A stretch of DNA of 64,000 bases. Source: Escherichia phage UPWr_E1. Positions 7,455-51,576 of this stretch are shown piece after piece. Under the pieces are notes generated by a model. It searched no databases and was not told the DNA's origin. It worked only from the letters and a program-made list of their open reading frames with translations. The stretch lies in sequence record PP418985.1. The stretch is one strand, 5' to 3'. The translations under genes were made by a program, and so were the position numbers. Numbering within the stretch: position 1 is the stretch's first letter; the number at the start of each line of letters is the position of its first letter.

Positions 7455-7489
7455 TTGACAATAAGAAATGGGAGTAGTAAAATACTCCC
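7455..7489 (+). promoter_or_regulatory. early promoter with -10 inside hairpin loop (type II)
   Basis: TTGACA 7455-7460; GGGAGTA 7470-7476 / TACTCCC 7483-7489; TAAAAT 7478-7483. Confidence 0.7.
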
Positions 7490-7514
7490 ATCTAATCAAG
7501 AAGGAGAATCAACA

Positions 7515-7787
7515 ATGCGTAAGATGTTTAAAGCTGGTGTTGCCTATGTTTTTAAATCTGAGCAAGCACGTAAAGACTTCTTAGAGGATGACTACGAAGG
7601 ATTGAAAGATACCTACGAAGCAATCAAGAATGGATTTACTGTTCTTAAAGTGTCACCCATTGGTTATGTAAGTGAAATCTCGGTTGACGGGAAAACATAT
7701 ACCGCTAAAGACTTTGATCCGCGTTGGGAATTTATGCTGCTTCCGTGTGACCGCATTCTGTTTCGTGCTGTTCAATTAGTGAAATGA
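7515..7787 (+). CDS. repeat-domain family protein (1 module, 91 aa)
   Basis: ATG 7515 after AAGGAGAATCAAC; stem-loop promoter 7455-7489; GFxVLKV...DG.TY module. Confidence 0.6.
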   Translation: MRKMFKAGVAYVFKSEQARKDFLEDDYEGLKDTYEAIKNGFTVLKVSPIGYVSEISVDGKTYTAKDFDPRWEFMLLPCDRILFRAVQLVK

Positions 7788-7801
7788 TAGAGGATTATAT
7801 T

Positions 7802-8362
7802 ATGGTACAGAAAACGTATAAATTGTATCCGGCTAAGTCTTCAAATGATACTGTTTTTGAACGAGGTCGTTATTACACTTTCCGTAATGCTGAGTCCGCA
7901 GAGGAATTTGTTAAACGCTATCCACAACATAACAAGTTCCTGTATGGTGTGCTTCACAAGGGCTTTAAAGTTCTGACGGTTAATGTTATGGGTAAAGTGT
8001 ATTTGGTAGAAACTCATGATTATGAGGGCGCGTCAATCATGATTGATGCAAGCGAGCGCAAATACTTTAAACGCATCACTAAAAAGCAGTTTGAAGAAAT
8101 GAAACCAGTTAAGAAAGAAGACTCTCTGGAAGATCTGATTAACTTGTTTGGTAAAGTTCGCTCTATCTCCTTTGCGATTGAAGATGACATTACCGACAAT
8201 AAAATCTTTATCAAGAACGCGGAAGACCTGAAAGAGTTCCTTATTGAAAATAGATCTCGGCTGGAAACCTTTCTTGAAAGTGAAATTATTCGACATGATA
8301 CCTACGCTAAATTCAGCGCCGAGAAAGTGGAAGAACTGAAAGAGATTAAAAAGTCACTTTAA
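7802..8362 (+). CDS. repeat-domain family protein (module + C-terminal helical LKEFL region)
   Basis: ATG 7802 after AGAGGATTATATT (alternative in-frame ATG 7784); GFKVL...ERKYFKRI motif. Confidence 0.55.
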   Translation: MVQKTYKLYPAKSSNDTVFERGRYYTFRNAESAEEFVKRYPQHNKFLYGVLHKGFKVLTVNVMGKVYLVETHDYEGASIMIDASERKYFKRITKKQFEEMKPVKKEDSLEDLINLFGKVRSISFAIEDDITDNKIFIKNAEDLKEFLIENRSRLETFLESEIIRHDTYAKFSAEKVEELKEIKKSL

Positions 8363-8365
8363 CGC

Positions 8366-8400
8366 TTGACATGATGAAACGGGAGTAGTAAGATACTCCC
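8366..8400 (+). promoter_or_regulatory. early promoter with -10 inside hairpin loop (type II)
   Basis: TTGACA 8366-8371; GGGAGTA 8381-8387 / TACTCCC 8394-8400; TAAGAT 8389-8394. Confidence 0.7.
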
Positions 8401-8425
8401 ATCTAAACAACGAGAGGATTACATT

Positions 8426-9604
8426 ATGGCTAAATTCTTTGAAGGGCATTACTATGCATTCCGTGAAGGCGGTAAAGATGAGTTTCTAGATTTTTCTCGC
8501 TATTCAACTATTCTGACCGATGCTTCGCGCCGTGGTCATATTCGGGTTGCTGGAATCGTAGAAAAGGGCTTTAAAGTATTAGAAAAAGATGACCACGGTC
8601 ATGTTGTTACTATTGAAGCTGGTGATGTGGTTTATTCCGCTAAGGATATTGTGGATTATTGGGCTACTATGATCATGCACAATGAGCGCAAATACTTTAA
8701 ACGTATCTCAAAAGAGACATACGAAGCAATGAATAAGAAAGAGGATGTAATGCCGACCTACTTTGAAAAAGGTAAATGTTATTCATTCACTCCAGAAGGT
8801 TTGCAAGAATTTAAGCGATTCTGGGGAGAGCATGATCCAGAACACAAAGAAGCCATGAAACTTGTTGATTTTGTTGAGTATGGCTTTTTAGTTGAAGAAG
8901 AATTTCACGGATCAGCTACCATGATCACCGCGAAAGATGAAACCGTCAAGGCAGAACGTTTTTGTGACCAATGGAATTGCTTGTTTGATGGTAGCGAATT
9001 TGAATACTTCGCAGAGATCACCCGCGCTGAATATACCCGTATGCAAGAACGTGGTCAGAGATTTAAAGTAGGCGAACGCTACAAGCCAAATCCACATAAT
9101 TTGCCTCATTGGTTTAACACTGAAACCGTATCAAGTCATGTTATTGAAATTGTTCAAACGCTGGAACATGGATTTAAGGTAACTAAAGTAGATTCTTTCG
9201 GAAGTGTTGACGCGGTTGAAGTTGATGGTGTAGAATATACTCCTAAATCTTTTGGGCTTTGCTGGTATCACCTGATCAGCAATGATGAACGTTATTACTT
9301 TGTTGAACTGCCATCTGAACCGGAAGAAGCACTAGAAGATCATGATCATCTGTCTGAACTGGTTAAACTGTTTGGTGATCTGCCGGGTGGTGTAGGGGTG
9401 GCGGTAATGGGTGAAGGTGCTGTTATTCGCAACCTGAAAGACCTTAAAAAGTTCTTGTTCGACATGCTGCCTAAACTCGATGAGAATCTAGATACAGATA
9501 TTCAGAATCGCAAAGAAATTGTTAAAGAGACTGAAAAAGAGATCGAAGAGATTCGAGCAATTCGCCAGAAGGTGAAAGCAGTAAAGAAAAAAGTTAGTGC
9601 TTGA
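8426..9604 (+). CDS. repeat-domain family protein (3 modules + C-terminal helical region, 392 aa)
   Basis: Stem-loop promoter 8366-8400; internal repeats each ending ERKYFKRI / EFEYFAEI / ERYYFVEL. Confidence 0.65.
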   Translation: MAKFFEGHYYAFREGGKDEFLDFSRYSTILTDASRRGHIRVAGIVEKGFKVLEKDDHGHVVTIEAGDVVYSAKDIVDYWATMIMHNERKYFKRISKETYEAMNKKEDVMPTYFEKGKCYSFTPEGLQEFKRFWGEHDPEHKEAMKLVDFVEYGFLVEEEFHGSATMITAKDETVKAERFCDQWNCLFDGSEFEYFAEITRAEYTRMQERGQRFKVGERYKPNPHNLPHWFNTETVSSHVIEIVQTLEHGFKVTKVDSFGSVDAVEVDGVEYTPKSFGLCWYHLISNDERYYFVELPSEPEEALEDHDHLSELVKLFGDLPGGVGVAVMGEGAVIRNLKDLKKFLFDMLPKLDENLDTDIQNRKEIVKETEKEIEEIRAIRQKVKAVKKKVSA

Positions 9605-9634
9605 CATGCAAAGGGAGTATGCTATAATACTCCC
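9601..9634 (+). promoter_or_regulatory. early promoter with -10 inside hairpin loop (type II)
   Basis: TTGACA 9601-9606; GGGAGTAT 9613-9620 / ATACTCCC 9627-9634; TATAAT 9623-9628. Confidence 0.75.
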
Positions 9635-9658
9635 ACTTAACAACGAGAGGATTATATT

Positions 9659-10153
9659 ATGTGGGTACAAGATATTTGGTATACTGTAACTAAAGAAAAC
9701 CTTGACGCATTCAGCGACCAATCTTGCGCTAATAGCTCAATTGCTGGTATCCTTACTGATGTGTTTGGGGGTGTAGATAAAATTCGTTTTAAAGTTGTTG
9801 TTAGTTCGCTGGGTCAGGTGAAAGATCTTTACACCGACGATAAAGACCTTGATCTTAAACTTCGTCTTCGTATTGAAAATGCAAGTCTAGGTTATTGGTT
9901 TGAAGATAACGAATATGAATACTTCACACCAGCAATTAAAGTTTTTGCAACTAAACTGGAAGCTGTACTGAATCTTCGACCAATTAATGTTGACGGGTAC
10001 ATTATTAAAAATCTTCAGGAGTGGGATTCATATCTAGCTCAAGTTATCCGTAACAGCAAGCAGGAAGCCGCTAATAAGAAACGACAAGAGATCAAACAGC
10101 TTAAAGCTGAACTAGAAGCGGCAGAAAAAGAATTAGCAGAACTGGTAAAATAA
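9659..10153 (+). CDS. hypothetical protein with C-terminal coiled coil (164 aa)
   Basis: Stem-loop promoter 9601-9634; terminator 10163-10185 downstream. Confidence 0.6.
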   Translation: MWVQDIWYTVTKENLDAFSDQSCANSSIAGILTDVFGGVDKIRFKVVVSSLGQVKDLYTDDKDLDLKLRLRIENASLGYWFEDNEYEYFTPAIKVFATKLEAVLNLRPINVDGYIIKNLQEWDSYLAQVIRNSKQEAANKKRQEIKQLKAELEAAEKELAELVK

Positions 10154-10162
10154 CTATCAACG

Positions 10163-10185
10163 AGCGGGAGAAATCCCGCTTTTTC
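10163..10185 (+). terminator. intrinsic terminator
   Basis: AGCGGGA-gaaa-TCCCGCT then TTTTT. Confidence 0.8.
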
Positions 10186-10197
10186 ATAGGTGATACA

Positions 10198-12060
10198 ATG
10201 GAAAAACTAATCAAAGACATTACAGAAATCGCAACGGGTAAAGAAAACGAAGTAAGCAAAGAGAACGCGAACAAAGACGCGCGAACATTCCCGACACGTC
10301 GAGATCTGATTGCTGGTGCTGTGTCTAAACAGATTGCTAAAACCGTGTTACCTGAGCACATCTATAAAGCGCATGTAGACGGTGATATTCATTATCATGA
10401 TATGGATTATGCACCCGCTATGCCGTTTACTAACTGCTGTCTTGTTAATCTCAAAGACATGTTAGAGAATGGTTTTAAATTGGGTAGTGCACAAATCGAA
10501 AGTCCGAAATCAATCGGTGTTGCATGTGCTGTAACCGCTCAAATTATCGCACAGGTGGCAAGTCATCAATATGGCGGAACTACCATAGCAAACATTGATC
10601 AGGTTTTAGCGCCATACGTTGAGAAAACATATCATAAACACCTTGCTGATGCCGAAACCTACGGAATCAAAGCTGATACTCTCTATGCACAAGAGAAGAC
10701 AGAAAAAGAAACGCTAGACGGATATCAGGCGTTGGAATATGAGATCAACACTTTGTTCTCTACCAATGGTCAAACGCCTTTTGTGACTTTAACATTTGGT
10801 ATGGGTACTAGCTGGGAAGAAAAACTGATTCAGAAAGCGATCCTGAACGTTCGAACTAAAGGTTTAGGTAAAGATGGTATCACTCCGGTGTTTCCTAAGC
10901 TGGTGATGTTCTTAGAAGAAGGATTAAACCTTAAACCGGAAGATCCGAACTACGACATTAAGCAACTTGCATTGGAATGTTCTAGTAAGCGTCTTTACCC
11001 TGATTATATCTCTGCGAAGAATAACCGTAGTATCACTGGATCTAGTGTTCCGGTTAGCCCGATGGGTTGTCGTAGCTTCCTGGGTGTGTGGCATAATGAG
11101 AAAGGCGAAGAAGTATTAGACGGACGTAATAACTTAGGTGTTGTGACTCTGAATCTTCCGCGTATTGCTCTTATTGCCGCGCGTCGTGCTGGTAAAGCGT
11201 CTGTAATGCGCAGAATTGAGCTATTCGAACAAGAGCTAGCTAATCGTATGCCTATTTGCTTTGATGCGCTCATGAGTCGCGTAGACGCTTTAAAAGGCGC
11301 TAAAGCCAATGTTGCTCCTGTACTGTATACCGAAGGTGCATTTTTCCGTATTCATCAAAACGATGAAATTTTGGAAGTGCTGAAAGATGGTCGCGCTAGT
11401 ATCTCTCTTGGTTATATTGGTTTACATGAGGTATTGAGCGTCCTGTTTGGTGTCCATCCGTTTGATTCGGAAGATGCGCAGCGATACGGTAAACATATTC
11501 TTAAGATCTTGCGTCATTATACTGAAAAATGGAAGGACGAAACCGGACTTGGGTTTAGTCTTTACGGTACGCCAGCCGAGAGCCTTTGTTATCGATTTAA
11601 TCGACTTGACCGAGAGCAATTTGGTATTATTAAGGGTGCTACCGATAAAGACTGGTACACCAACTCATTCCACCTTGACGTAGACCGGAAGGTTACACCG
11701 TTTGAGAAAATCGACTTTGAGAAAGATTATCACTGGCTGGCGTCCGGTGGCATGATCTCTTATGTTGAGTTCCCAGACATGAAAAACAACCTGAAAGGTC
11801 TTGAAACTGTAGTAGACTATGCAATGGATAAATTGCACTACTTCGGTGTTAATACCCCTTCTGATGTGTGTCATGTATGCGGATCTACTAAGGAAATGAG
11901 AGCGACCGAGTTTGGTTTTGTTTGTCCTGATTGCGGCAATGATAATCTGGAAAAAATGAATGTTATCCGTCGCGTTAGTGGATATCTTGGATCTGTTGAT
12001 CTGCGTCCATTTAACCACGGGAAACACTCTGAGATGGTAAACCGCGTTAAGCATATGTAA
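10198..12060 (+). CDS. nrdD: anaerobic ribonucleoside-triphosphate reductase (class III)
   Basis: 620 aa; C-terminal glycyl-radical region and zinc ribbon (CHVCG...CPDCG); no intron interruption. Confidence 0.92.
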   Translation: MEKLIKDITEIATGKENEVSKENANKDARTFPTRRDLIAGAVSKQIAKTVLPEHIYKAHVDGDIHYHDMDYAPAMPFTNCCLVNLKDMLENGFKLGSAQIESPKSIGVACAVTAQIIAQVASHQYGGTTIANIDQVLAPYVEKTYHKHLADAETYGIKADTLYAQEKTEKETLDGYQALEYEINTLFSTNGQTPFVTLTFGMGTSWEEKLIQKAILNVRTKGLGKDGITPVFPKLVMFLEEGLNLKPEDPNYDIKQLALECSSKRLYPDYISAKNNRSITGSSVPVSPMGCRSFLGVWHNEKGEEVLDGRNNLGVVTLNLPRIALIAARRAGKASVMRRIELFEQELANRMPICFDALMSRVDALKGAKANVAPVLYTEGAFFRIHQNDEILEVLKDGRASISLGYIGLHEVLSVLFGVHPFDSEDAQRYGKHILKILRHYTEKWKDETGLGFSLYGTPAESLCYRFNRLDREQFGIIKGATDKDWYTNSFHLDVDRKVTPFEKIDFEKDYHWLASGGMISYVEFPDMKNNLKGLETVVDYAMDKLHYFGVNTPSDVCHVCGSTKEMRATEFGFVCPDCGNDNLEKMNVIRRVSGYLGSVDLRPFNHGKHSEMVNRVKHM

Positions 12061-12066
12061 TTTTCA

Positions 12067-12098
12067 GCCGATCCGAAAGGGTCGGCTTTTTCGTTTTT
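12067..12098 (+). terminator. intrinsic terminator after nrdD
   Basis: 8-bp stem GCCGATCC / GGGTCGGC with GAAA loop, then TTTTTCGTTTTT. Confidence 0.8.
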
Positions 12099-12103
12099 AG
12101 GTG

Positions 12104-12131
12104 TTGACAATCTTGTTAGCTCATGTATAAT
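12104..12131 (+). promoter_or_regulatory. sigma70-type early promoter (extended -10)
   Basis: TTGACA 12104-12109; TGTATAAT 12124-12131. Confidence 0.7.
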
Positions 12132-12163
12132 GCACATATCGAAAACAAAGAGAGGATAACATT

Positions 12164-12700
12164 ATGTTTTGTGTACTGAATAAAGAAATTAAAATTCGCA
12201 AGTTAGAAATTGGTGATGGTGTAGTTGTTAAAATGCACGCTAGCACACTGGCTAGCTTTGGTACAAAAGAAAGTTTCTTTATTATGGGAACTGTTGTTAA
12301 TATCTGCTGGAGTAAAGGCGAAGGCACACAAATCCGTAGTTTTTGTGTCGTTGACGAAGATAATAATCTGTATGTGATTCGCTATCAGAATCAATCTGTA
12401 TTGGTTTATACCGATAATTCACGAGAACTGTATACGCTGGACTTTGCTAAACTATGTGATTGTGATAAAAAGATTCAGGCGTACCACACAGAAGGCTGTT
12501 TTGGTGTTGGCGTCGAAGAGGAAGAGTACATCCCATTGGAAGTCGGGGCAGAAATTAAACATAGTGCCACGGATCGTATTTTTACGGTTGTTGCTGTTAA
12601 TGCAACTCAATTTGTAGCACAAGCACATAATACGGGATTCGTTATCTATGACATTGGTAATGCAAGTTCTCATTTTGAGGGCGTACAATTTCGTTTATAA
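12164..12700 (+). CDS. hypothetical protein (178 aa)
   Basis: Promoter 12104-12131; ATG 12164 after AGAGGATAACATT. Confidence 0.55.
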   Translation: MFCVLNKEIKIRKLEIGDGVVVKMHASTLASFGTKESFFIMGTVVNICWSKGEGTQIRSFCVVDEDNNLYVIRYQNQSVLVYTDNSRELYTLDFAKLCDCDKKIQAYHTEGCFGVGVEEEEYIPLEVGAEIKHSATDRIFTVVAVNATQFVAQAHNTGFVIYDIGNASSHFEGVQFRL

Positions 12701-12712
12701 TGTGAGGTGATT

Positions 12713-13243
12713 ATGTCTAAGTTATTGAATCGTAAGCGTAAAGCACAACGACACAAAGAACGAGCTAAAAAGATTGCTATTGAACTCTGTGAGCGTGAGG
12801 ATAGCTATTTGTCTACTGGTCGTTTGCATACATTCCATGCATTGATTGATGGTAAGCCAGTGTTGCATAATCATGATTGCTTGGCACTGTTTCACGAAAT
12901 CGAACCAATTCATCGTGAATGGGATGACAACAAAGCAAAAGGTCAATATTTCCTTACTTGTTCGTGCGGTCATGCTGGATGTGCTGGATATTGGGAACCT
13001 GTTACTATCCGCGAGAAAAATGATACTATTCAATGGGTTGCCCGTACCCGCGATGGTTATGATAAAGGTGCTGATTGTACTGGTGATAACGTAGTTTACT
13101 TTAATCGTGATTGGTATTATATGGCGCGATGTATGATCCTGTTTTATCTTGACTCGATGCCGTATGAATATTTCAGTTTCCAGAATGGGACCGAACTTAC
13201 TGGTAGAGAATGGTCTGAATACATTCGAAAAAATTTAAAATAA
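12713..13243 (+). CDS. hypothetical protein, basic N-terminus, Cys/His cluster (176 aa)
   Basis: ATG 12713 after GTGAGGTGATT; CSCGHAGCAGYW motif. Confidence 0.55.
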   Translation: MSKLLNRKRKAQRHKERAKKIAIELCEREDSYLSTGRLHTFHALIDGKPVLHNHDCLALFHEIEPIHREWDDNKAKGQYFLTCSCGHAGCAGYWEPVTIREKNDTIQWVARTRDGYDKGADCTGDNVVYFNRDWYYMARCMILFYLDSMPYEYFSFQNGTELTGREWSEYIRKNLK

Positions 13244-13247
13244 ACGC

Positions 13248-13276
13248 TTGACGGGGATCGCGAGATCCCCTATACT
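13248..13276 (+). promoter_or_regulatory. early promoter with spacer stem-loop (type I)
   Basis: TTGACG 13248-13253; GGGGATC-gcga-GATCCCC 13253-13270; TATACT 13271-13276. Confidence 0.75.
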
Positions 13277-13318
13277 ATATTCATCAAGACGAGATACAAC
13301 TTTACAGGAGAATCAAAT

Positions 13319-13471
13319 ATGTGGACTTTACTGATTTGGGAAACTGAAAACGCACAAGTAGAAATCCGTGAATACGAATACCTAAGCCCAGCTTATCTAT
13401 TGGCATCTCGCGGTGGTTACTATAAAGCGCAGATTGTAAACGAGTTCGGGGTAATTGAATATGAGTTCTGA
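13319..13471 (+). CDS. hypothetical small protein (50 aa, not in ORF track)
   Basis: ATG 13319 after AGGAGAATCAAAT downstream of stem-loop promoter 13248-13276; overlaps nrdG start by 11 nt. Confidence 0.4.
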   Translation: MWTLLIWETENAQVEIREYEYLSPAYLLASRGGYYKAQIVNEFGVIEYEF

Positions 13472-13964
13472 TACATACGGCAAACTACGCTATGCCGATA
13501 TTAAAGATTGTGATATGGTTAACGGTGAGGGAGTGAGAGTCTCCCTTTACGTTACCGGATGTTCACACGCATGTGATGGTTGCTTTAATGCTAGCCTACT
13601 CAATCCTAAGAACGGGGAACCATTCACCGATGATACAATGGGATTGGTTTTGGATCTGCTTAGACCGGATTTTATTCAGGGGCTAACCTTCTTAGGTGGT
13701 GATCCGTTGTATAAACGAAATTTAAAGGGTGTACAACGGATCATTGATGAAGTAAAATCATGGATGCCAAATAAAGATATTTGGCTATGGTCCGGTTATA
13801 CCCTTGACCAATTGAATGATGAGCAAAGAAAAATTATAGAATCAGTTGACATGTTCATCGATGGTCGGTATATTAAAGACATGCCAACGAAGAAGCCGTG
13901 GCGGGGGTCTGACAATCAAGTACAATACAAGATTGTTGATAATATCCCAGTGAAAATTATTTGA
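13461..13964 (+). CDS. nrdG: anaerobic ribonucleotide reductase activating protein (radical SAM)
   Basis: Cys cluster CSHACDGC; size about 167 aa; track start 13455 is TTG, ATG 13461 preferred. Confidence 0.85.
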   Translation: MSSDTYGKLRYADIKDCDMVNGEGVRVSLYVTGCSHACDGCFNASLLNPKNGEPFTDDTMGLVLDLLRPDFIQGLTFLGGDPLYKRNLKGVQRIIDEVKSWMPNKDIWLWSGYTLDQLNDEQRKIIESVDMFIDGRYIKDMPTKKPWRGSDNQVQYKIVDNIPVKII

Positions 13965-13974
13965 GGTGATTATT

Positions 13975-14463: not shown

Positions 14464-14467
14464 TATT

Positions 14468-14953: not shown

Positions 14954-14965
14954 GAGGATTATATT

Positions 14966-24798: not shown

Positions 24799-25485
24799 AT
24801 GAAACTGACTAAAGAAACCATTGCTACCCTGAAAAACTTTTCCGCTATTAACCCAGGTATCATCCTGAAAAAAGGAAACGTCCTGATCACCAAAAACATG
24901 ACAAACGTTGTATATGGTGAAGCGACTCTGAATCAAGAACTGGAACACGAAATCGGGATCTATGATCTTAACTCTTTCCTGGGTATTCTGAATCTGGTAG
25001 GTGATGAAGCAGATATTACGGTTGATAACCGCACTGGTAACATTCGTGTGTCTAACGATCGTCTGAAAATTAATTATCCTGGTGCTAGTGCTGCCGCTAT
25101 CGTATCACCGAAAGGCCGAGTTACTCCACCTGCAAGCGATGTAGATTACGAACTGAGCAACGACGATCTGAAACAGCTTATGAAAATGAGCAACCAGCTT
25201 AAAGTGGACCGACTTGAGTTTCTACCGATTGATGGTCGTCTGATGATCAAAGGCTGGGAAGAGATTGACAAAAATAATCCGAATGAGATGTTTTGTCTTG
25301 ATATGGGCGAATATGCCGGAACCGCAGACTTCCATTTCTTTATTCGTAAAGATAACATGAAACTGGTTGCTACTGACTTCGGCGATTACAAACTGAGCTT
25401 CACTCGCCGTAAGGCTGTATGGCTGGCAAGTGAAACCGTATCTTATATGATCGCGTGTGACCTTGACTCCAGCTACACCGACTAA
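24799..25485 (+). CDS. 45: sliding clamp gp45
   Basis: 228 aa; colinear with remembered T4 gp45 (MKL.K.T...LKNF..IN.GI.LK, AIYDLN.FLGIL.LV). Confidence 0.92.
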   Translation: MKLTKETIATLKNFSAINPGIILKKGNVLITKNMTNVVYGEATLNQELEHEIGIYDLNSFLGILNLVGDEADITVDNRTGNIRVSNDRLKINYPGASAAAIVSPKGRVTPPASDVDYELSNDDLKQLMKMSNQLKVDRLEFLPIDGRLMIKGWEEIDKNNPNEMFCLDMGEYAGTADFHFFIRKDNMKLVATDFGDYKLSFTRRKAVWLASETVSYMIACDLDSSYTD

Positions 25486-25491
25486 TATAAT
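25463..25491 (+). promoter_or_regulatory. sigma70-type promoter overlapping the end of gene 45
   Basis: TTGACT 25463-25468; TATAAT 25486-25491 (17-nt spacer). Confidence 0.6.
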
Positions 25492-25498
25492 GTTTGTT

Positions 25499-25522
25499 GG
25501 GAGTGTAAATACTCCCCGTTTT
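25499..25522 (+). terminator. hairpin plus T-run after gene 45 (terminator-like; type II hairpin word)
   Basis: GGGAGT-gtaaat-ACTCCC 25499-25516 then CGTTTT; lies just downstream of promoter 25463-25491. Confidence 0.5.
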
Positions 25523-25550
25523 AATGATGTAATTTGTGAGAGGTGATTAT

Positions 25551-42816: not shown

Positions 42817-42855
42817 TTGACATAAAAGGGAGATTCTCTATAATGGGAGTCTCCC
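42817..42855 (+). promoter_or_regulatory. early promoter inside a hairpin that also has terminator architecture
   Basis: TTGACA 42817-42822; TATAAT 42839-42844 in the loop of stem GGGAGA 42828-42833 / TCTCCC 42850-42855; T-run 42856-42859. Confidence 0.65.
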
Positions 42856-42878
42856 TTTTCTTTTATGAGGATTTAATA

Positions 42879-43439: not shown

Positions 43440-43626
43440 CCATTACATCGAACTGGCAAGCCGTAGAGTTTCCGATCTGAAAGGCGTAATTGCTTACTAT
43501 GAAGAAGTCCTGAAAAACGAAATTGCTGATTGGGAACGTAAAGAATACAGCAAGTGCTTAGAGAAAAGCCGCGCTGAACTGGTTGACGCAGAAGCCCATC
43601 TGCAATGGGTGATTGAAAATGTATAA
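43432..43626 (+). CDS. hypothetical protein (64 aa)
   Basis: ATG 43432 after AAGGAGAATCAAA. Confidence 0.55.
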   Translation: MRNHYIELASRRVSDLKGVIAYYEEVLKNEIADWERKEYSKCLEKSRAELVDAEAHLQWVIENV

Positions 43627-43636
43627 GGAGTAGAAA

Positions 43637-43894: not shown

Positions 43895-43908
43895 GTGAGG
43901 ATTATATT

Positions 43909-46017: not shown

Positions 46018-46028
46018 GAGGTGATATT

Positions 46029-46160
46029 ATGACTAAACTGACCGCTATCCAGAAAGAAACCATCCGTAAACAATACGCTCGCGGCTTGACTAAAGGCGAA
46101 CTGGCACGAATCTATAATGTATCAGACCGCACAATCCGCAAGGTTGTAGAAGCAAAATAA
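46029..46160 (+). CDS. small helix-turn-helix protein (43 aa, not in ORF track)
   Basis: ATG 46029 after GAGGTGATATT; GLTKGELARIYNVSDRTIRKV resembles an HTH. Confidence 0.4.
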   Translation: MTKLTAIQKETIRKQYARGLTKGELARIYNVSDRTIRKVVEAK

Positions 46161-46172
46161 TTCTGGTATAAT
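46144..46172 (+). promoter_or_regulatory. extended -10 promoter upstream of rIIB
   Basis: TTGTAG 46144-46149; TGgTATAAT 46164-46172; leader hairpin 46183-46200. Confidence 0.55.
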
Positions 46173-46222
46173 GATGTGAATCGGGCGGCGAGAGTCGCCC
46201 AACTAATAGAGGAATGAATAAT

Positions 46223-47215
46223 ATGACTAAAGCAAAAATCACCGTCTCTGACCGTAACGTTCAATGTCTGGACTCCGCAAAACAAATCAAACTGGCTAAA
46301 CAGTGGGGCGAAGGTAAGTTTACTACCCGCGAAGCACTTGCGGCAGCATTTGGTGTATCTCGTCGCACTGCCTCCCGTGTATTACTGATTCAGAAAGACG
46401 CAGTAGCGGAAGGTCGCAAGGCACTAGAAAACCGTAAAGCACGCCGTAAAACCAGTAAAGGAAAAGGCGGTGAACGCGCAAAAAAGCCCGTGACTACTTC
46501 CTCAAAAATCGTAGCAATAGCCTCATCTAAATTTATTACTATTACATGTGGTGACATTGTTTATACTGCTGATCCATCACATGTTAACTTTAATGAAGCA
46601 CTGGAAGCGATTAAACATAATGATTTCATCAAAGCTATTACGCTGATTGACATTAAGAAAGCGGTTGAAGTATATTATCACGGTGCTTTCCGTATCGAAA
46701 ATGGTATTGTGTATTATCATAATATTGTTCTTGATAATAATCTGACTCGTCGAGTTGTGGAGTCGATTAAAGAGAATAAGCCATATACGCACTATCTGAA
46801 CTTCTTTGAGAAGTGTAAGAAGAATCCTAGCCGTAAGGCGGTAGATCGTCTGTTTGACTTCTTAGAGCACAACGACATTGAGATCGGGGAAGACGGTTGT
46901 TTCTATGCATGGAAACGTGTTGATGTTGATTATAAAGATTTCTTTACGCATACGTTTGATAATAGCCCAGGGCGCACGGTTAAAATGAAGCGTAAAGACG
47001 TGGACCCGGATGATGATCGTACTTGCTCTAATGGCCTCCACGTTGCAGCGAAACACTATATTCCGCACTATGGCGGTGGGCGAGGCCGAATCATTAAATG
47101 CAAAGTTGATCCGCGTCACGTTGTAAGTATCCCGAAAGATTATGCGAATGCCAAAATGCGCTGTCATCGTTACTATGTGGTTGAAGATGTAACCGAAGGT
47201 TTTAGCCATTACTAA
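46223..47215 (+). CDS. rIIB: rIIB protein
   Basis: About 330 aa (T4 rIIB about 312 aa); follows rIIA; promoter 46144-46172; alternative in-frame ATG 46214. Confidence 0.7.
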   Translation: MTKAKITVSDRNVQCLDSAKQIKLAKQWGEGKFTTREALAAAFGVSRRTASRVLLIQKDAVAEGRKALENRKARRKTSKGKGGERAKKPVTTSSKIVAIASSKFITITCGDIVYTADPSHVNFNEALEAIKHNDFIKAITLIDIKKAVEVYYHGAFRIENGIVYYHNIVLDNNLTRRVVESIKENKPYTHYLNFFEKCKKNPSRKAVDRLFDFLEHNDIEIGEDGCFYAWKRVDVDYKDFFTHTFDNSPGRTVKMKRKDVDPDDDRTCSNGLHVAAKHYIPHYGGGRGRIIKCKVDPRHVVSIPKDYANAKMRCHRYYVVEDVTEGFSHY

Positions 47216-47229
47216 TAGAGGAATTAATT

Positions 47230-47547
47230 ATGATTGATATGAAAGTTACTTGCGAAAGTGCACATGTTGAAGTAGAACAGGTATTATATCCATCTCGACG
47301 CGTTACGGTGACTTTAGACGATGTGGATCTGGCTAATAATGTTACCGTTGAAGATATTGCTAACGAGTATGACCATGATGAACTGTTAGATGCAATCCCT
47401 GAACATGTTGTGATCCAGCACGTAGTAAGCAATAATGATCCATCGACTTTCATTAAAGAATATGGCGCTGATGAAATGCTCGATGAAATTGGTGAAAAGA
47501 TTGTTATTGCATGGCTTGAAAACAACGGCTATACTGTAGAACAATAA
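47230..47547 (+). CDS. hypothetical acidic protein (105 aa)
   Basis: ATG 47230 after AGAGGAATTAATT; terminator 47556-47578 follows. Confidence 0.55.
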   Translation: MIDMKVTCESAHVEVEQVLYPSRRVTVTLDDVDLANNVTVEDIANEYDHDELLDAIPEHVVIQHVVSNNDPSTFIKEYGADEMLDEIGEKIVIAWLENNGYTVEQ

Positions 47548-47555
47548 TAAACATA

Positions 47556-47578
47556 GGCCGCTTTGCGCGGCCTTTCTT
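47556..47578 (+). terminator. intrinsic terminator
   Basis: GGCCGC-tttg-CGCGGCC then TTTCTT. Confidence 0.7.
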
Positions 47579-47592
47579 AGAGGGAATACATT

Positions 47593-47904
47593 ATGACGGT
47601 CACGATTATTACCAAATACGACGACGAAAATGTGATTTACGGTGATGTGGTTGTTGTTCACGGTCGTAGCATGAAAGTTACTGGTAATTGTAAAGATGGT
47701 GCTATTATTTGCGGTGAATTGGTGAGAACCGTCAATCCTATCACCGACGAACAAAAGCGAGACATTATCAGAAAACTTAAAGACAGTGGATATTGTAACG
47801 TTGTGGTGATTCAGGAAAAATTTGAAGTAGGCCACTTATACACAAATCAGAAAACAATTCCGGTATCAATGGTTAAAGGCGGTTATAATGCTAGGTCATT
47901 CTAA
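47593..47904 (+). CDS. hypothetical protein (103 aa)
   Basis: ATG 47593 after AGAGGGAATACATT. Confidence 0.55.
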   Translation: MTVTIITKYDDENVIYGDVVVVHGRSMKVTGNCKDGAIICGELVRTVNPITDEQKRDIIRKLKDSGYCNVVVIQEKFEVGHLYTNQKTIPVSMVKGGYNARSF

Positions 47905-48250
47905 AATAGAAGATTGCTCATTCAGAGCAATGAAAGATGATTTTTCGGTCCTGTACGCGTCTATCCGAGAATTGTTTGTAGATTTTAAGCAATTCAGGGA
48001 ATACAAAGGCGTTAAGATGCGGGAGTGGGTATTCTGGCCTTTCTATATCATTACTCTGTTTTCTATGGTATTTTGTTTTGTCGGGATCACTATCGCTAGT
48101 TTTGTCACTTGCGTTTTCCTGATTATCCGGTGTATCATGTTTGCTTTGATTGCTGCCCCGTTTATTGTTTCAATCCTTCCGTTAAAATGGCTATTGGATT
48201 GGGCTGATAAATCTGATAAAGTAAAGAATGTGATTTGTAAGCGTGTATGA
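47888..48250 (+). CDS. hypothetical membrane protein (120 aa)
   Basis: Two or three hydrophobic helices; immediately upstream of gene 52. Confidence 0.45.
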   Translation: MLGHSKIEDCSFRAMKDDFSVLYASIRELFVDFKQFREYKGVKMREWVFWPFYIITLFSMVFCFVGITIASFVTCVFLIIRCIMFALIAAPFIVSILPLKWLLDWADKSDKVKNVICKRV

Positions 48251-48257
48251 GGTGAAG

Positions 48258-49604
48258 ATGAATAAATCAGTTACTTACCGCAGCCTTGAAAGCATTGTAC
48301 ATAATGAAGCTAAGGAATATGCGATCTATTCCGCCGAGGAACGCGGTATTCCTCAATTAGTAGATGGTCTTAAACCAGTGCAACGCTTTGTTATGGAATG
48401 TGCTTTGCAAAAGAGTAAAGGCGACCGTAAGAAATTCCGTAAGATGGCAGATATTGGATCTGGTGTTGCTGAGTTGGGTTATCACCACGGGGAAACTAAT
48501 GCCGTAGAAGCCGGATCACTTATGGCGAATACATGGAGCAATAATACTCCACTGCTTGACGGTCAAGGTAACTTCGGATCGCGTTTAGTCCAGAAAGCGG
48601 GTGCAGCACGTTATATCTTTGCTCGTGTGCATGAAAACTTCTTTAAAATCTATAAAGATATGAATTGCGCACCTAAGCACGAAGATCTGGAACACATCCC
48701 GCCATCGTTCTACTTGCCAGTTGTGCCAATGGTATTAGCTAATGGTATTAGTGGTATTGCTACAGGGTATAAAACTGACATTTTACCGCATTCACTGGAA
48801 AGCCTTATTGAATGCACAGAGCTAGCACTTGCCGGAAAACTGGATAAAGAACCTAGTGTTCAATTCCCAAAATTCACGGGTAAAGTTATCCCGCGCGATG
48901 ACCGCGATGGTGTTATTCTTGAGGGTACATATGAACTAAACGGCAAGACTAAGCTGACAATATCAGAAGTTCCTTATAAGTTCGACCGTGAAGAATATGT
49001 AGCTGTACTGGATGCACTGGAAGAAAAAGATCTGATTGTATCGTATAATGACCGTTGCTCTAAGGACGGATTCAGATTTGAGGTAACACTGAAACGTGAT
49101 TATTTCAAAAGCGAAGATGAATCCGCTCGACATGAGCAGATCATGAAGGATTTTAAGCTAACGCAGTTAGTAGCCCAGAATATCGTAGTAGTTAACGAAC
49201 GTGGTTTAGTAGAAGTATTCGAGAAAGCGAGCGATTTGATCCGTCGATTCGTCGAAATCCGATTAGGCTATGTAGATAAACGCATTGAATTGATGCAAGC
49301 CGAAACACTGGAAGCATACAATTATGCAATGGCTAAAGCAGAATTTATCGACCGTGTGATTAAGGGCGAAATCGAGCTACAGGGCAAGAAAAAGGCCGAG
49401 GTAATGCAATCCATCAATGAACATGAAAAACTTCGCCCATATGCCGATAAGCTCGTTTCTATGCCATTGTATAGCGTTACTCAAGAAGAGTACGATCGAC
49501 TGGTCAAAGATGCCGATAAACATCATAGTGAATATGAGTATTGGACAAAGACGACCGCAATGAAGGAATATAAGAAAGATCTTAAAGAACTTAAGAAGGC
49601 TTGA
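48258..49604 (+). CDS. 52: DNA topoisomerase II medium subunit gp52 (GyrA-like)
   Basis: DGLKPVQR start motif, GNFGSR region; about 448 aa (T4 gp52 about 442 aa); ATG 48258 after TGAGGTGAAG. Confidence 0.9.
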   Translation: MNKSVTYRSLESIVHNEAKEYAIYSAEERGIPQLVDGLKPVQRFVMECALQKSKGDRKKFRKMADIGSGVAELGYHHGETNAVEAGSLMANTWSNNTPLLDGQGNFGSRLVQKAGAARYIFARVHENFFKIYKDMNCAPKHEDLEHIPPSFYLPVVPMVLANGISGIATGYKTDILPHSLESLIECTELALAGKLDKEPSVQFPKFTGKVIPRDDRDGVILEGTYELNGKTKLTISEVPYKFDREEYVAVLDALEEKDLIVSYNDRCSKDGFRFEVTLKRDYFKSEDESARHEQIMKDFKLTQLVAQNIVVVNERGLVEVFEKASDLIRRFVEIRLGYVDKRIELMQAETLEAYNYAMAKAEFIDRVIKGEIELQGKKKAEVMQSINEHEKLRPYADKLVSMPLYSVTQEEYDRLVKDADKHHSEYEYWTKTTAMKEYKKDLKELKKA

Positions 49605-49810
49605 TTATGAAAGAATATCCAGAAGGCGGTTATATTGCATTTGTGTACAACAATGAAAAGATTGTACCGATGGTCGTTGAGACTATGGAAGAAGCCAACC
49701 GGATCACTATTGAATCTCTGAACAAGTTAGCAGAGATAACAAACACACCAGAACACAGAGCAACGATAGATTATTTGATGAAAGAATTTTTGGAGGGAAA
49801 GTATGACTGA
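49601..49810 (+). CDS. hypothetical protein (69 aa)
   Basis: ORF; ATGA overlap. Confidence 0.5.
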   Translation: MIMKEYPEGGYIAFVYNNEKIVPMVVETMEEANRITIESLNKLAEITNTPEHRATIDYLMKEFLEGKYD

Positions 49811-50198
49811 ACGACGCATCACTTCAAATGGTTTAGGTATCCATCATACATGGATGGTTGATCCAGACAAAAATCCTTATAAACTGTACGATAAAACCGT
49901 TAAACCGTGGAATAATAGCGTATGGGAAACATCACCAACAACAGCACCTATTATGACTGATCCGAAACCGATTAGCCCGATGGCAGATCCAGTACAGATT
50001 AAGCCGTTACCTTACCAGATAACGACCAATAGCATCGCCAACAAACAAGAAAATGATATTGATATGATCTACGAGATGATTAAACTTTGGCGTGATGTTT
50101 ATCTGGGTGTTCTCTATAACACAGATAAAAGTGCACATGAGGCGGCGTTACTGGCATCTCATGCGGTAGACGAAGCCAAAAAGAAATTTAGTAAGTAA
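49803..50198 (+). CDS. hypothetical protein (131 aa)
   Basis: ORF; terminator 50208-50236 follows. Confidence 0.5.
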   Translation: MTERRITSNGLGIHHTWMVDPDKNPYKLYDKTVKPWNNSVWETSPTTAPIMTDPKPISPMADPVQIKPLPYQITTNSIANKQENDIDMIYEMIKLWRDVYLGVLYNTDKSAHEAALLASHAVDEAKKKFSK

Positions 50199-50207
50199 CT
50201 GATTATT

Positions 50208-50230
50208 AAGCCGATCCTCGTGGTCGGCTT
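50208..50230 (+). repeat. 23-nt terminator hairpin repeat, copy 1
   Basis: AAGCCGATCCTCGTGGTCGGCTT; identical in inverse orientation at 61354-61376; same stem with a different loop at 12066-12088. Confidence 0.8.
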
Positions 50231-50236
50231 TTTTAT
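50208..50236 (+). terminator. intrinsic terminator (repeated element, copy 1)
   Basis: AAGCCGATC-ctcgt-GGTCGGCTT then TTTTTT. Confidence 0.8.
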
Positions 50237-50248
50237 TTTAAAAAGTTG

Positions 50249-50277
50249 TTGACTTCAAGAATCTAGCATTGCATAAT
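50249..50277 (+). promoter_or_regulatory. sigma70-type early promoter
   Basis: TTGACT 50249-50254; TGCATAAT 50270-50277. Confidence 0.65.
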
Positions 50278-50308
50278 ACACACAACTAAACAAAAAGGAG
50301 ACTCAAAA

Positions 50309-50515
50309 ATGAAAGTACGTTGCATTGAAACAGATCACATCAATTATAGCTTTAGTGTCGGGTGTGATTATGATGTTGATGTATTCACAGACAATAGCGG
50401 AAACACATTTGATGTAGTCCACGGCGACTATATTTGGTTTTACTTTGACAAACAACAACTTACTGCAACCAAACGAAACGGTGATCCGGTAGCAAAATTT
50501 GAAATAATCGAATAA
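50309..50515 (+). CDS. hypothetical protein (68 aa)
   Basis: Promoter 50249-50277; ATG 50309 after AAAGGAGACTCAAA. Confidence 0.55.
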   Translation: MKVRCIETDHINYSFSVGCDYDVDVFTDNSGNTFDVVHGDYIWFYFDKQQLTATKRNGDPVAKFEIIE

Positions 50516-50520
50516 AGTAT

Positions 50521-50555
50521 ATTGACACCAGAACAAGGGAGTAGTAACATACTCC
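50521..50555 (+). promoter_or_regulatory. early promoter with -10 inside hairpin loop (type II)
   Basis: TTGACA 50521-50526; GGGAGTA 50536-50542 / TACTCCC 50549-50555; TAACAT 50544-50549. Confidence 0.7.
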
Positions 50556-50580
50556 CACACCAAACAAAAGGAGAATCAAA

Positions 50581-50854
50581 GATGAACAACGAAAACAGCA
50601 AGGTGTTAGCAATTGCCGATAAAGTAGGCTATTGGAAATGCTGGGATGATATGGAGAAATTAGGCGGTCGCTATCTCGATAACTTAGAGTTGCATTATTG
50701 CCAAGCGCGTAATGCGGAAGTCGCGGGAGTAGCAATTGAAGATATTCCGTCTAAGATCTTCGGATTCTCGAAAGATGATACTTTAGAATATGTTTTCAAG
50801 GCTGTTATGGATCAAGCATGGGAAGACGCAGAGACACGCGCTCTTGATTGGTGA
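50581..50854 (+). CDS. hypothetical protein (91 aa)
   Basis: Stem-loop promoter 50521-50555; ATG 50581 after AAGGAGAATCAAAG. Confidence 0.55.
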
Positions 50855-50858
50855 TAAT

Positions 50859-51032
50859 ATGAACTGGTATAAAATTTGGAAAAATCAGGTGGAGGCTTAT
50901 CTAGGGTATAAGCCCACCGACGAAGAATTACTTGAAGCAATGTACGAAGACGGCCTAAATCCGAAAGTAGCCGCGCAAGAATACGCGGAATGGGTGAAGG
51001 TCGAAGATAATTTAAAATTCCATAAAAATTAG
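50859..51032 (+). CDS. hypothetical protein (57 aa)
   Basis: ATG 50859 after GGTGATAAT. Confidence 0.45.
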   Translation: MNWYKIWKNQVEAYLGYKPTDEELLEAMYEDGLNPKVAAQEYAEWVKVEDNLKFHKN

Positions 51033-51067
51033 TTGACGCCAAAGGTCGTCGGTAGTAAGATACTCCC
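51033..51067 (+). promoter_or_regulatory. early promoter with degenerate type II hairpin
   Basis: TTGACG 51033-51038; TAAGAT 51056-51061; 3' arm TACTCCC 51061-51067 kept, 5' arm degenerate. Confidence 0.6.
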
Positions 51068-51094
51068 ATACCGAAACGAAAGAAGGAGAATCAC

Positions 51095-51307
51095 ATGAAA
51101 TCTATTGAGCAAGTAGTGACTGAATTTATGAGCTACGAAGGAAACCGCATCTTTGGACGTTCTCAAGTTCGCGAGATCGTAGAAGAAGTTGCGGGAGAGT
51201 TTGCGGAATCTGGTCACGTTATCACACAAGAACGTAAAGAAGAAGCAGTAAGCCAGATCATGGCTATTCAGAAAATGCGTATTAATGCACGAGCGGGTAA
51301 AAATTAA
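51095..51307 (+). CDS. hypothetical protein (70 aa)
   Basis: Promoter 51033-51067; ATG 51095 after AGGAGAATCAC. Confidence 0.55.
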   Translation: MKSIEQVVTEFMSYEGNRIFGRSQVREIVEEVAGEFAESGHVITQERKEEAVSQIMAIQKMRINARAGKN

Positions 51308-51317
51308 AAAATAGTTG

Positions 51318-51346
51318 TTGACAGGGGATCGCCGATCCCCTACAAT
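51318..51346 (+). promoter_or_regulatory. early promoter with spacer stem-loop (type I)
   Basis: TTGACA 51318-51323; GGGGATC-gcc-GATCCCC 51324-51340; TACAAT 51341-51346. Confidence 0.75.
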
Positions 51347-51377
51347 GAACTCATCAAGACAACGAAGGAGAATCAAA

Positions 51378-51533
51378 ATGAAACATACTCACAAATTAAT
51401 GGTTAAATTTGAAGGCGCTAAAGGATATGAACGTTATGGTGTATTCTTCTCTGAGGATGATGCGTGGGATGCTGGTCTGGCAACGTTCTCTGAGCACAAC
51501 AACATTGAAGACTTTACTGTAGAAGAAATTTAA
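51378..51533 (+). CDS. hypothetical protein (51 aa)
   Basis: Stem-loop promoter 51318-51346; ATG 51378 after AAGGAGAATCAAA. Confidence 0.5.
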   Translation: MKHTHKLMVKFEGAKGYERYGVFFSEDDAWDAGLATFSEHNNIEDFTVEEI

Positions 51534-51541
51534 AAAAGTAG

Positions 51542-51576
51542 TTGACACCGGATTAAGGGAGTAGTAAGATACTCCC
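51542..51576 (+). promoter_or_regulatory. early promoter with -10 inside hairpin loop (type II)
   Basis: TTGACA 51542-51547; GGGAGTA 51557-51563 / TACTCCC 51570-51576; TAAGAT 51565-51570. Confidence 0.7.

Follow-up and report, generated by a model that had tools for sequence, protein, structure and literature searches.

Several predicted early promoters of Escherichia phage UPWr_E1 carry the same inverted repeat, GGGAGTA/TACTCCC, around the -10 box. They raise the question of whether the repeat serves the promoter itself, the RNA transcribed across it, a DNA-binding protein, or the exchange of the genes that lie on either side. The stretch analyzed in full (64,000 nucleotides from PP418985.1, hereafter "the window") is Krischvirus DNA, of an RB49-like coliphage, and 58 Krischvirus genomes, RB49 and Phi1 included, are 91-97% identical to it. 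The elements are real but not new: promoter-early stem-loops (PeSLs) were published as a class in 2010 and proposed to be recombination modules (Arbiol et al. 2010, Genome Biol Evol 2:140, PMC2839356). As described there, RB49 and phi1 each have about 50 PeSLs in five subclasses defined by stem position, of which stems "between -35 and -10" and stems "overlapping the -10" are the commonest; most lie in hyperplastic regions, upstream of ORFans or of plastic genes (nrdD, for example). The work was extended by Comeau et al. 2014 (PMC4122927). It is very probable that the six sites described here are PeSLs of the subclass with the stem-loop over the -10 box and, as part of the same joint judgement, that they act by the mechanism proposed below.

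Promoter cassettes with a stem-loop over the -10 box

The exact pattern GGGAGTA-N(3-30)-TACTCCC was searched on both strands of the window, with 100 dinucleotide-preserving shuffles as control. Five such palindromes were found, all on the + strand and with 6 or 8 nucleotides between the arms, and none occurred in the shuffles; the arm 7-mer alone occurs 15 times in the window, against 3.8 expected. With a sixth, degenerate copy the cassettes are as follows.

7455-7517, + strand: PeSL copy 1; -35 TTGACA 7455-7460, 5' arm 7470-7476, -10 TAAAAT 7478-7483, 3' arm 7483-7489 (palindrome 7470-7489), predicted start A 7490, ATG 7515; fold -13.8 kcal/mol
8366-8428, + strand: PeSL copy 2; -35 8366-8371, 5' arm 8381-8387, -10 TAAGAT 8389-8394, 3' arm 8394-8400 (palindrome 8381-8400), predicted start A 8401, ATG 8426 (frd.2-like gene)
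9601-9661, + strand: PeSL copy 3, with 8-nt loop; -35 9601-9606, 5' arm 9613-9619, TGn-extended -10 TATAAT 9623-9628, 3' arm 9628-9634 (palindrome 9613-9634), predicted start A 9635, ATG 9659
50522-50584, + strand: PeSL copy 4; -35 50522-50527, 5' arm 50537-50543, -10 TAACAT 50545-50550, 3' arm 50550-50556 (palindrome 50537-50556), predicted start A 50557, ATG 50582
51033-51097, + strand: degenerate copy; TTGACG 51033-51038, -10 TAAGAT 51056-51061, 3' arm TACTCCC 51061-51067, ATG 51095
51542-51607, + strand: PeSL copy 5; -35 51542-51547, 5' arm 51557-51563, -10 TAAGAT 51565-51570, 3' arm 51570-51576 (palindrome 51557-51576), predicted start A 51577, ATG 51605

A sequence-only reading had described five sites as TTGACA, about 10 nt, GGGAGTA, a loop containing the -10, and TACTCCC, with the same 7-bp arms at each. 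The exact palindromes, the TTGACA and the TAnnAT -10 hexamers are all present as described, but the fourth site begins at 50522 rather than 50521, and TTGACA is separated from the 5' arm by 6 nt in the copy at 9601 and by 9 nt in the other four. The loop takes in the first five bases of the -10; the sixth, T(-7), opens the 3' arm. The loop itself is 6 nt, or 8 nt in the copy at 9613. The sixth site was rightly read as keeping the 3' arm only: TTGACG and TAAGAT are followed by ACTCCC, GTCGTCGGTA stands in place of the 5' arm, and a stable hairpin is absent (z = -0.5, no better than shuffles). Retention of the 3' arm despite loss of the 5' arm is as expected if the 3' arm is core promoter.

The reading of these sites as promoters holds up well: they agree with the early promoters of RB49-type phages, which are near-consensus sigma-70 promoters, and the GEC-3S record has a promoter annotated at two of them. 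The -35/-10 spacers of the five intact copies are 17, 17, 16, 17 and 17 nt in genome order, and a promoter scan scored 10-12 of 12 consensus matches in the three copies that it covered. The 25 nt upstream of the cassettes are 68-88% A+T (window mean 59.5%), the distance from the upstream stop to the -35 is between -4 and +8 nt, and GGAG or GAGG followed by ATG is found 24-28 nt past the predicted start. Copy 1 starts 3 nt past the stop of gene 49 (endonuclease VII), and in copy 3 the TGA stop of the upstream gene (9602-9604) is inside the -35. An A follows CCC in the cassettes and is the predicted start site. RB49 early promoters favour C at -3 to -1, and 5'-end mapping bears out their predicted consensus (Nolan et al. 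2006, PMC1524935); the C preference fits the ACTCCC-then-A layout seen here. No relevant transcriptome or start-site data for Krischvirus came out of a literature search.

The agreement with PeSLs of RB49 and phi1 extends to the genus, the whole cassette (AT-rich region, TTGACA-N16/17-TAnnAT, stem-loop, Shine-Dalgarno sequence and ATG), the intergenic position before small ORFans, and the association with indel junctions between close relatives; the subclass with the stem over the -10 box is itself among those described, and no essential difference was found. The near-consensus promoter, AT-rich upstream region, Shine-Dalgarno sequence, phage type and indel junctions of PeSLs were all found here, and five copies have the stem-loop, which the sixth lacks. 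The neighbours of the window cassettes encode hypothetical proteins, both in the gene 49-nrdD region and in that downstream of gene 52. The passages of the PeSL papers drawn on here emphasize G(n)-loop-C(n) stems, and in them the GGGAGTA/TACTCCC subfamily, its covariation and its missing U-tract are not singled out. No Rfam family was recognized in a scan of the whole window. An IMG/VR scan for the exact palindrome returned at least 120 loci, nearly all single chance matches. TTGAC lay no more than 20 nt upstream in 7 of the 240 strand-wise matches listed (about 4 expected by chance), the contigs concerned have no protein in common with the window, and among the matches listed there was no evidence of the module outside Krischvirus.

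A -10 box in a loop brings to mind promoters that depend on a hairpin, such as those of the N4 virion RNA polymerase and the single-strand promoters of conjugative plasmids. By analogy, the repeat could act on DNA, a supercoiling-driven hairpin or cruciform exposing the -10 as single strand and tuning open-complex formation. N4 promoters and F Frpo also combine promoter elements with an inverted repeat, but there the fold creates the promoter, whereas the PeSLs of the window are normal duplex sigma-70 promoters for whose geometry the fold is dispensable: the 16-17 nt spacing is canonical in linear duplex, and the hairpin-less copy retains all promoter elements. Moreover, T(-7) would be paired in the hairpin, 7-bp arms with a 6-nt loop extrude poorly, and sister PeSLs have their stems either entirely within the spacer or ahead of the -35, so that stem position is not fixed relative to polymerase contacts. 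Action through DNA extrusion is accordingly given very little credence.

Base pairing in the stem

Predicted folding energies of the five intact hairpins range from -11.9 to -13.8 kcal/mol (z = -4.0 to -6.1), and none of 200 shuffles was as stable. Among Phi1 paralogues, pair 4 of the stem, usually A-T, is G.T in GGGGGTA/TACTCCC, G-C in GGGGGTA/TACCCCC and T-A in GGGTGTA/TACACCC, this last variant coming from direct inspection and standing outside the formal pair count; the remaining two single arm changes, TGCTCCC and TACTCTC, also leave wobble pairs. Four further promoters of the window have a hairpin around the -10 built from different arms, and loops of 6 and 8 nt are both tolerated. Because one stem pair takes the forms A-T, G.T, G-C and T-A, and because other arms give the same layout, base pairing appears to be selected in its own right and not merely inherited, although the covariation series among paralogues behind this claim is small. 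Formal covariation is thin: in the 20 N6-loop sequences to which the count was confined (MAFFT misaligned the 8-nt-loop copies, putting a gap at the 5' end), both members of one pair vary, and an equally high score is reached by 34 of 500 shuffles. In orthologues, 4 of 56 arm columns and 6 of 33 spacer columns are variable, so that at this low divergence no clear excess of conservation sets the arms apart from their flanks. One copy in ECD7 has two disrupting changes (TACTACA), which indicates that the hairpin is not indispensable at every site.

The same substitutions bear on whether the palindrome is instead a double-stranded operator, at which a dimeric phage protein bound over the -10 would switch a subset of early promoters off or on, or would target site-specific recombination there. 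Recognition of the stems by a DNA-binding protein was raised as a speculation by Arbiol et al. (2010, PMC2839356), a repressor would be well placed on a site that overlaps the -10, and the arms are identical in the five window copies next to spacers (from the -35 to the 5' arm) that differ wholly among paralogues; T4 early-promoter shut-off is also incompletely understood. An operator would, however, be expected to have fixed half-site spacing and base-specific conservation. Here the half-sites are 6 or 8 nt apart, a variation ill suited to rigid dimers, pair 4 varies, and the arm changes are wobble-compatible or compensatory, as for a folded single strand rather than a duplex read base by base; unrelated arms also occupy the same layout at other promoters. 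We know of no candidate binding protein, and an operator seems very improbable. Equally hard to credit is the broader suggestion that the GGGAGTA/TACTCCC subfamily, with about ten members per genome, provides sites for a putative phage factor whose target would be the RNA hairpin or the palindrome. If true, such a factor would bring common control of these early genes (processing, antitermination or shut-off) or targeted recombination, and would be of consequence for phages without the MotA middle-mode switch.

Possible roles of the hairpin in read-through RNA

Each cassette fills the short interval between two consecutive small early genes and comprises an AT-rich stretch, a near-consensus host sigma-70 promoter, and a 24-28 nt leader with Shine-Dalgarno sequence and start codon. 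The 3' arm, TACTCCC, combines the final base of the -10 with the discriminator and, counted from the predicted start, ends at -1; the 5' arm is a complementary stretch in the spacer. In the mechanism favoured here, transcripts from the cassette's own promoter would therefore be without the hairpin, and only RNA reading through from upstream promoters would fold it. The hairpin's most likely role there is to mark where the upstream unit ends, perhaps as a weak terminator or attenuator, or as a block to 3' exonucleases, and it may so insulate each small gene cassette. The role of attenuator or 3'-end barrier is suggested by the layout of the -10-overlapping hairpin. Among 17 promoters taken by inspection as intergenic, 15 have either a stem that reaches the start site or lies immediately upstream of it, or a canonical terminator right ahead of the promoter; the exceptions are the degenerate copy at 51033, with no stable stem, and 42817, where a long stem extends beyond the predicted start.

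Like rho-independent terminators, these hairpins are G+C-rich, lie on the sense strand and stand between a stop codon, which they closely follow, and the next transcription unit, but they lack the U-tract that directly follows the hairpin of an intrinsic terminator, and the stem is only 7-9 bp. The hairpin tails are ATCTAATC, ATCTAAAC, ACTTAACA, ACACCAAA and ATCAAGAC, with 0-3 T in the next 8 nt as against 6-7 in true terminators of the window, and a terminator scan of the + strand of the window did not call these hairpins. With neither a T-run nor a call, efficient intrinsic termination at these sites is doubtful. In other records ARNOLD did call the copy-1 hairpin, in G37-3 (-12.0), and the equivalent intact cassette of the 50-52 kb region, in G2494 (-12.0). 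For other PeSLs, promoter strength, a stem-loop-dependent drop in downstream reporter expression, and mini-circles have been measured (PMC2839356). The PeSLs assayed were 211/210 for the stem-loop and 193/192 and 206/205 for promoter activity; in Phi1 the stem of all three, GGGGATC...GATCCCC, lies within the spacer rather than about the -10. In the lacZ assay of Arbiol et al. 2010 (PMC2839356), termination and RNA decay are inseparable. RegB cleavage at the GGAG of the 5' arm was considered and set aside, as RegB is inhibited by secondary structure.

Crossovers between cassettes

The KFS-EC genome has lost exactly the segment corresponding to window 7455-8365, the 911 bp between two copies, and retains a single chimeric cassette with the spacer of copy 1 and the loop and leader of copy 2, which places the crossover within GGGAGTAGTAA. 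When the 50-52 kb region was compared with eight relatives, indel breakpoints mapped to 50312/50549, 51014-51080, 51297-51329 and 51526-51529, all in or adjoining promoter cassettes. Copy 4 and the 68-aa ORF that precedes it (50309-50515) are missing in RB49, Phi1, ECD7, PHB13 and Cognac, and the degenerate copy looks like a recombinant of hairpin-less and intact cassettes when set against FL04, KMB43, PHB13 and Cognac. These junctions indicate that the cassettes serve as crossover points for the swapping of small genes. With a core of about 45 bp in about ten copies per genome, the phage recombination system would cross over between copies, and the intervening genes would be deleted, inserted or swapped.

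Frequent recombination could also account for the hairpin with no function of its own, the cassettes being recent duplicates whose arms are homogenized by recombination and gene conversion. Crossovers can be seen directly within the core, divergence among the genomes compared is only 4-9%, so that orthologues give little power, and one ECD7 copy and one window copy have lost the pairing and kept the promoter. Gene conversion should, however, also homogenize the adjoining spacer and leader, which differ among paralogues with identical arms; a single pair that has undergone both compensatory and wobble changes speaks for selection on pairing, and unrelated arm sequences recur in the same layout. 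A functionless hairpin is therefore considered very unlikely. The sequence-only reading had seen in the repeats a mobile or recombinogenic module rather than convergence. A recombinogenic module is well supported by the precise cassette-to-cassette deletion in KFS-EC, the breakpoints at 50-52 kb and the PeSL model of Arbiol et al. 2010. The dismissal of convergence was too strong, given that other arm sequences yield the same -10 layout and one stem pair covaries among paralogues.

The cassettes resemble morons, integron-like cassettes and the "linker" sequences of Botstein and Campbell in modular phage evolution: small accessory genes travel with their own promoter and transcript-ending signal, and conserved boundaries serve as crossover points. 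They differ in having no integrase and no attC-type site, and exchange appears to proceed by general homologous recombination of the phage over about 11-45 bp of identity.

The UPWr_E1 window is a clean textbook case of PeSLs that adds little new in itself. Possible additions are further natural recombinants among some 58 genomes, a small covariation series that points to selected pairing, and a -10-overlapping class without a U-tract, whose role in RNA is putative. PeSLs are among the few concrete mechanisms proposed for the shuffling of accessory genes in large lytic phages with essential operons left intact: gene, promoter and transcript boundary would move as a unit, and the shared boundary would be the site of crossover.

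Five cassettes with a common hairpin

An exact search of the window for GGGAGTA-N(3-30)-TACTCCC gives five matches, on the + strand only, and none was found in 100 dinucleotide-preserving shuffles; the 7-mer on its own occurs 15 times, versus about 3.7 expected. TTGACA lies upstream of each palindrome.

GGGAGTA/TACTCCC cassettes of the window (TTGACA start; palindrome; strand; -10 hexamer; -35/-10 spacer)
Copy 1: 7455; 7470-7489; +; TAAAAT; 17 nt
Copy 2: 8366; 8381-8400; +; TAAGAT; 17 nt
Copy 3: 9601; 9613-9634; +; TATAAT; 16 nt
Copy 4: 50522; 50537-50556; +; TAACAT; 17 nt
Copy 5: 51542; 51557-51576; +; TAAGAT; 17 nt

The layout proposed in the sequence-only reading, with the -10 in the loop of a hairpin downstream of TTGACA, holds at all five sites with small corrections: copy 4 starts at 50522 rather than 50521, the "about 10 nt" gap from TTGACA to the 5' arm measures 6 nt at 9601 and 9 nt in the other four copies, and the loop contains five bases of the -10, whose last T opens the 3' arm. 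RNA folding of the five hairpins yields -11.9 to -13.8 kcal/mol (z = -4.0 to -6.1), equalled by 0 of 200 shuffles. A degenerate copy at 51033 (TTGACG...TAAGAT ACTCCC) does, as was claimed, keep the 3' arm only; its 5' arm is gone and its fold is at chance level.

Fifty-eight phage records match the window between 7000 and 12000, at 90-97% identity, and every one is an RB49-like coliphage of the T4 type in the genus Krischvirus (RB49, Phi1, JSE and GEC-3S among them); the GEC-3S record has promoters annotated at two of these sites. Copies 1-3 lie between gene 49 (endonuclease VII) and nrdD; a second cluster, copies 4 and 5 with the degenerate copy, lies amid small hypothetical genes downstream of gene 52. 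All copies share the orientation of the genes and start between 4 nt inside and 8 nt past the upstream stop codon. At 9601-9606 the -35 TTGACA includes the TGA stop (9602-9604) of the upstream 392-aa ORF, a sign of tight cassette packing. The 25 nt upstream of the cassettes are 68-88% A+T, an A directly follows CCC, and an ATG preceded by GGAG or GAGG is found 24-28 nt further on.

An Rfam scan of the whole window found no family, and an IMG/VR pattern scan for the palindrome gave, among the matches listed, essentially chance-level hits in unrelated contigs. A few of those listed (loci L015/L088/L105, L057/L083 and L113) have TTGACA near GGGAGTA...TACTCCC; they have no protein in common with the window and their number is near chance expectation.

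Promoter-early stem-loops and recombination

Approximately 50 promoter-early stem-loops (PeSLs) each were described in RB49 and phi1 by Arbiol et al. (2010, PMC2839356), comprised of an AT-rich region, a sigma-70 consensus promoter, a stem-loop, a Shine-Dalgarno sequence and a start codon. By that account most of them precede ORFans in hyperplastic regions, and they also occur in the vicinity of nrdD; stem position defines five subclasses, of which 'between -35 and -10' and 'overlapping the -10 box' are the commonest. The stem-loop was proposed as a terminator or attenuator of upstream transcription and the entire cassette as a homologous recombination site that shuffles flanking ORFs, with physical evidence of excised mini-circles; the idea has been extended to T4/PST and KVP40/nt-1 (Comeau et al. 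2014). The "Type II promoter" and the "mobile or recombinogenic module" of the sequence-only reading are, respectively, the PeSL subclass with the stem over the -10 and the model already published. The feature is real and was rightly described and interpreted, yet has been known since 2010, and its interest is low. The PeSLs that Arbiol et al. describe as assayed (211/210, 206/205 and 193/192) are all of the spacer-stem type in Phi1, unlike the -10-overlapping copies here, and the lacZ read-out used there cannot distinguish termination from RNA decay.

Recombination at the cassettes is borne out in relatives. In phage KFS-EC the two ORFs that separate copies 1 and 2 are missing; the locus aligns to 2721-7499 and 8366-12754 of the window with 45 bp common to both alignments, which amounts to a cassette-to-cassette deletion of exactly 911 bp. 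The lone remaining cassette has the copy-1 spacer fused to the copy-2 loop and leader, which places the crossover within GGGAGTAGTAA. Against eight relatives, alignments of the second cluster break at 50312/50549, 51014-51080, 51297-51329 and 51526-51529, each in or adjoining a promoter cassette, and only 5 of the 58 genomes cover the region to at least 80%. There, a 68-aa ORF (50309-50515) together with copy 4 is an insertion relative to RB49, with its junction in the conserved leader. The degenerate copy at 51033 reads as a recombinant of a hairpin-less and an intact cassette, the two that flank an extra ORF in FL04.

A separate presence/absence polymorphism, with no PeSL link, is an HNH homing-endonuclease gene of ~730 bp between dam and nrdC, missing from the window (site 6656/6658), RB49 and Phi1.

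HNH gene in retrieved loci
GEC-3S: L001 1916-2671
KMB43: L124 5116-5871
phiS: L127 5116-5871

Constraint on the two arms

The window, together with 18 loci from 14 related phages, yielded 33 distinct cassette sequences, of which 32 are GGGAGTA/TACTCCC-like. Among paralogues, spacers and leaders differ, arms are nearly invariant and -10 positions 3-5 are free to vary (TAAAAT, TAAGAT, TAACAT, TAATAT, TATTAT, TATAAT); among orthologues, divergence is too low to inform. Apart from pair 4 (below), the arm variants seen are TGCTCCC (U.G wobble; GEC-3S, Phi1 and ECD7), TACTCTC (G.U wobble; Phi1) and one disrupted copy, TACTACA, in ECD7. Five further Phi1 cassettes of this subfamily lie outside the window's region.

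Additional Phi1 cassettes (L138, Phi1 108000-138000; minus strand, offsets on the reverse complement)
5987
6268
6493
16142
21810

Three of these five are the source of variants at pair 4: GGGGGTA/TACTCCC (G.U, or G.T as DNA), GGGGGTA/TACCCCC (G-C) and GGGTGTA/TACACCC (U-A, or T-A as DNA). Compensatory arm changes in relatives are thus found in the Phi1 paralogues, but in a formal count over 20 N6-loop sequences, where 98.6% of cells were paired and a single pair had changed on both sides, the two-sided-change score was equalled in 34 of 500 shuffles, so that the covariation is suggestive and not strong.

The 3' arm spans -7 to -1, with A as the predicted start (+1). Because it occupies these positions and RB49 early promoters favour C from -3 to -1, a preference consistent with 5'-end mapping (Nolan et al. 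2006), it is mostly core promoter (discriminator and start context), and the 5' arm is its complement, set in the spacer. With an 8-nt loop, the 5' arm is displaced by ~2-3 nt relative to the -35 and -10 and the 3' arm stays in position; as core promoter, ACTCCCAT is therefore kept in the hairpin-less cassette of the window, FL04, KMB43, PHB13 and Cognac. Spacer-stem PeSLs have ACACAC-AT in place of the 3' arm.

A palindrome might instead be an operator recognized as duplex DNA, a reading disfavoured by variable half-site spacing, covariation of the arms and the presence of unrelated arms in the same layout. The wobble intermediates, compensatory changes and 6-or-8-nt loop speak for a single strand that folds, in the simplest case RNA, rather than for a duplex operator. 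Pure hitch-hiking through gene conversion, as the cause of like arms, is likewise disfavoured by divergent flanks beside identical arms and by the compensatory changes.

Hairpin placement and its probable effect on upstream RNA

Early promoters were collected as TTGAC-N16-18-(T/C)AnnnT with a ribosome-binding site and start codon; 17 were judged intergenic by inspection, and 16 of the 17 are paired with a hairpin.

Early promoters of the window by hairpin placement
1478, 3551, 13248, 20672, 51318: GGGGATC...GATCCCC-type stem, entirely in spacer
7455, 8366, 9601, 50522, 51542: GGGAGTA/TACTCCC stem around -10
1185 (GGTGT/ACACC), 4230 (GCGGTTAT/ATAGCCGC), 43186 (GGGGATAT/ATGTCCCC), 42817 (14-bp stem, TATAAT as loop, T-run after): other arms around -10
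12104, 50249: no embedded stem, canonical terminator immediately upstream
51033: degenerate copy, no stable stem

Several of these have features of their own. At 42817-42866, a perfect 14-bp hairpin (AAAGGGAGATTCTC/GGGAGTCTCCCTTT) comes after TTGACA; its 6-nt loop consists of exactly TATAAT, and TTCTTTTA follows, which makes it a canonical intrinsic terminator merged base-for-base with a consensus promoter (-23.2 kcal/mol). The 3' arms at 1185, 4230 and 43186 end directly before a CAT(C) start context. GATC Dam sites, one or two per stem, are frequent in the spacer-stem PeSLs (TTGACA-GGGGATC...GATCCCC-TATACT), and a Dam methylase is among the phage's own genes (5851-6663). Canonical terminators of the same family (AGCCGATCC...GGTCGGCT with a T-run) stand immediately before promoters 12104 and 50249 (12066-12131 and 50208-50277, respectively). 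Within 25463-25525, TTGACT-N17-TATAAT lies just upstream of a GGGAGT/ACTCCC hairpin with near-identical arms (25499-25517), then GTTTT; that stem is after the -10, not around it.

In the hairpin-paired promoters the end of the hairpin coincides with the start site or falls just short of it, except at 42817, where the long stem passes the predicted start. This common placement across differing stem positions fits a role on RNA coming from upstream and misfits one in polymerase-promoter contacts. A promoter-intrinsic cruciform is disfavoured: the promoter already has canonical geometry as duplex, T(-7) would be paired, the arms are short, and stem position varies among PeSL classes.

No T-run follows the GGGAGTA/TACTCCC hairpins (0-3 T in the next 8 nt, versus 6-7 at the real terminators 12066 and 50208 and at hairpin 42817), and a terminator scan did not call them on the + strand. 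ARNOLD-based annotation does call a terminator at the copy-1 hairpin (G37-3) and at the equivalent intact second-cluster cassette (G2494). Since the 3' arm ends at -1, the cassette's own transcript would begin just past the hairpin and not include it. On the best reading, the hairpin would be a weak attenuator, a barrier to 3' exonucleases, or both, closing off the upstream message and insulating the cassette.
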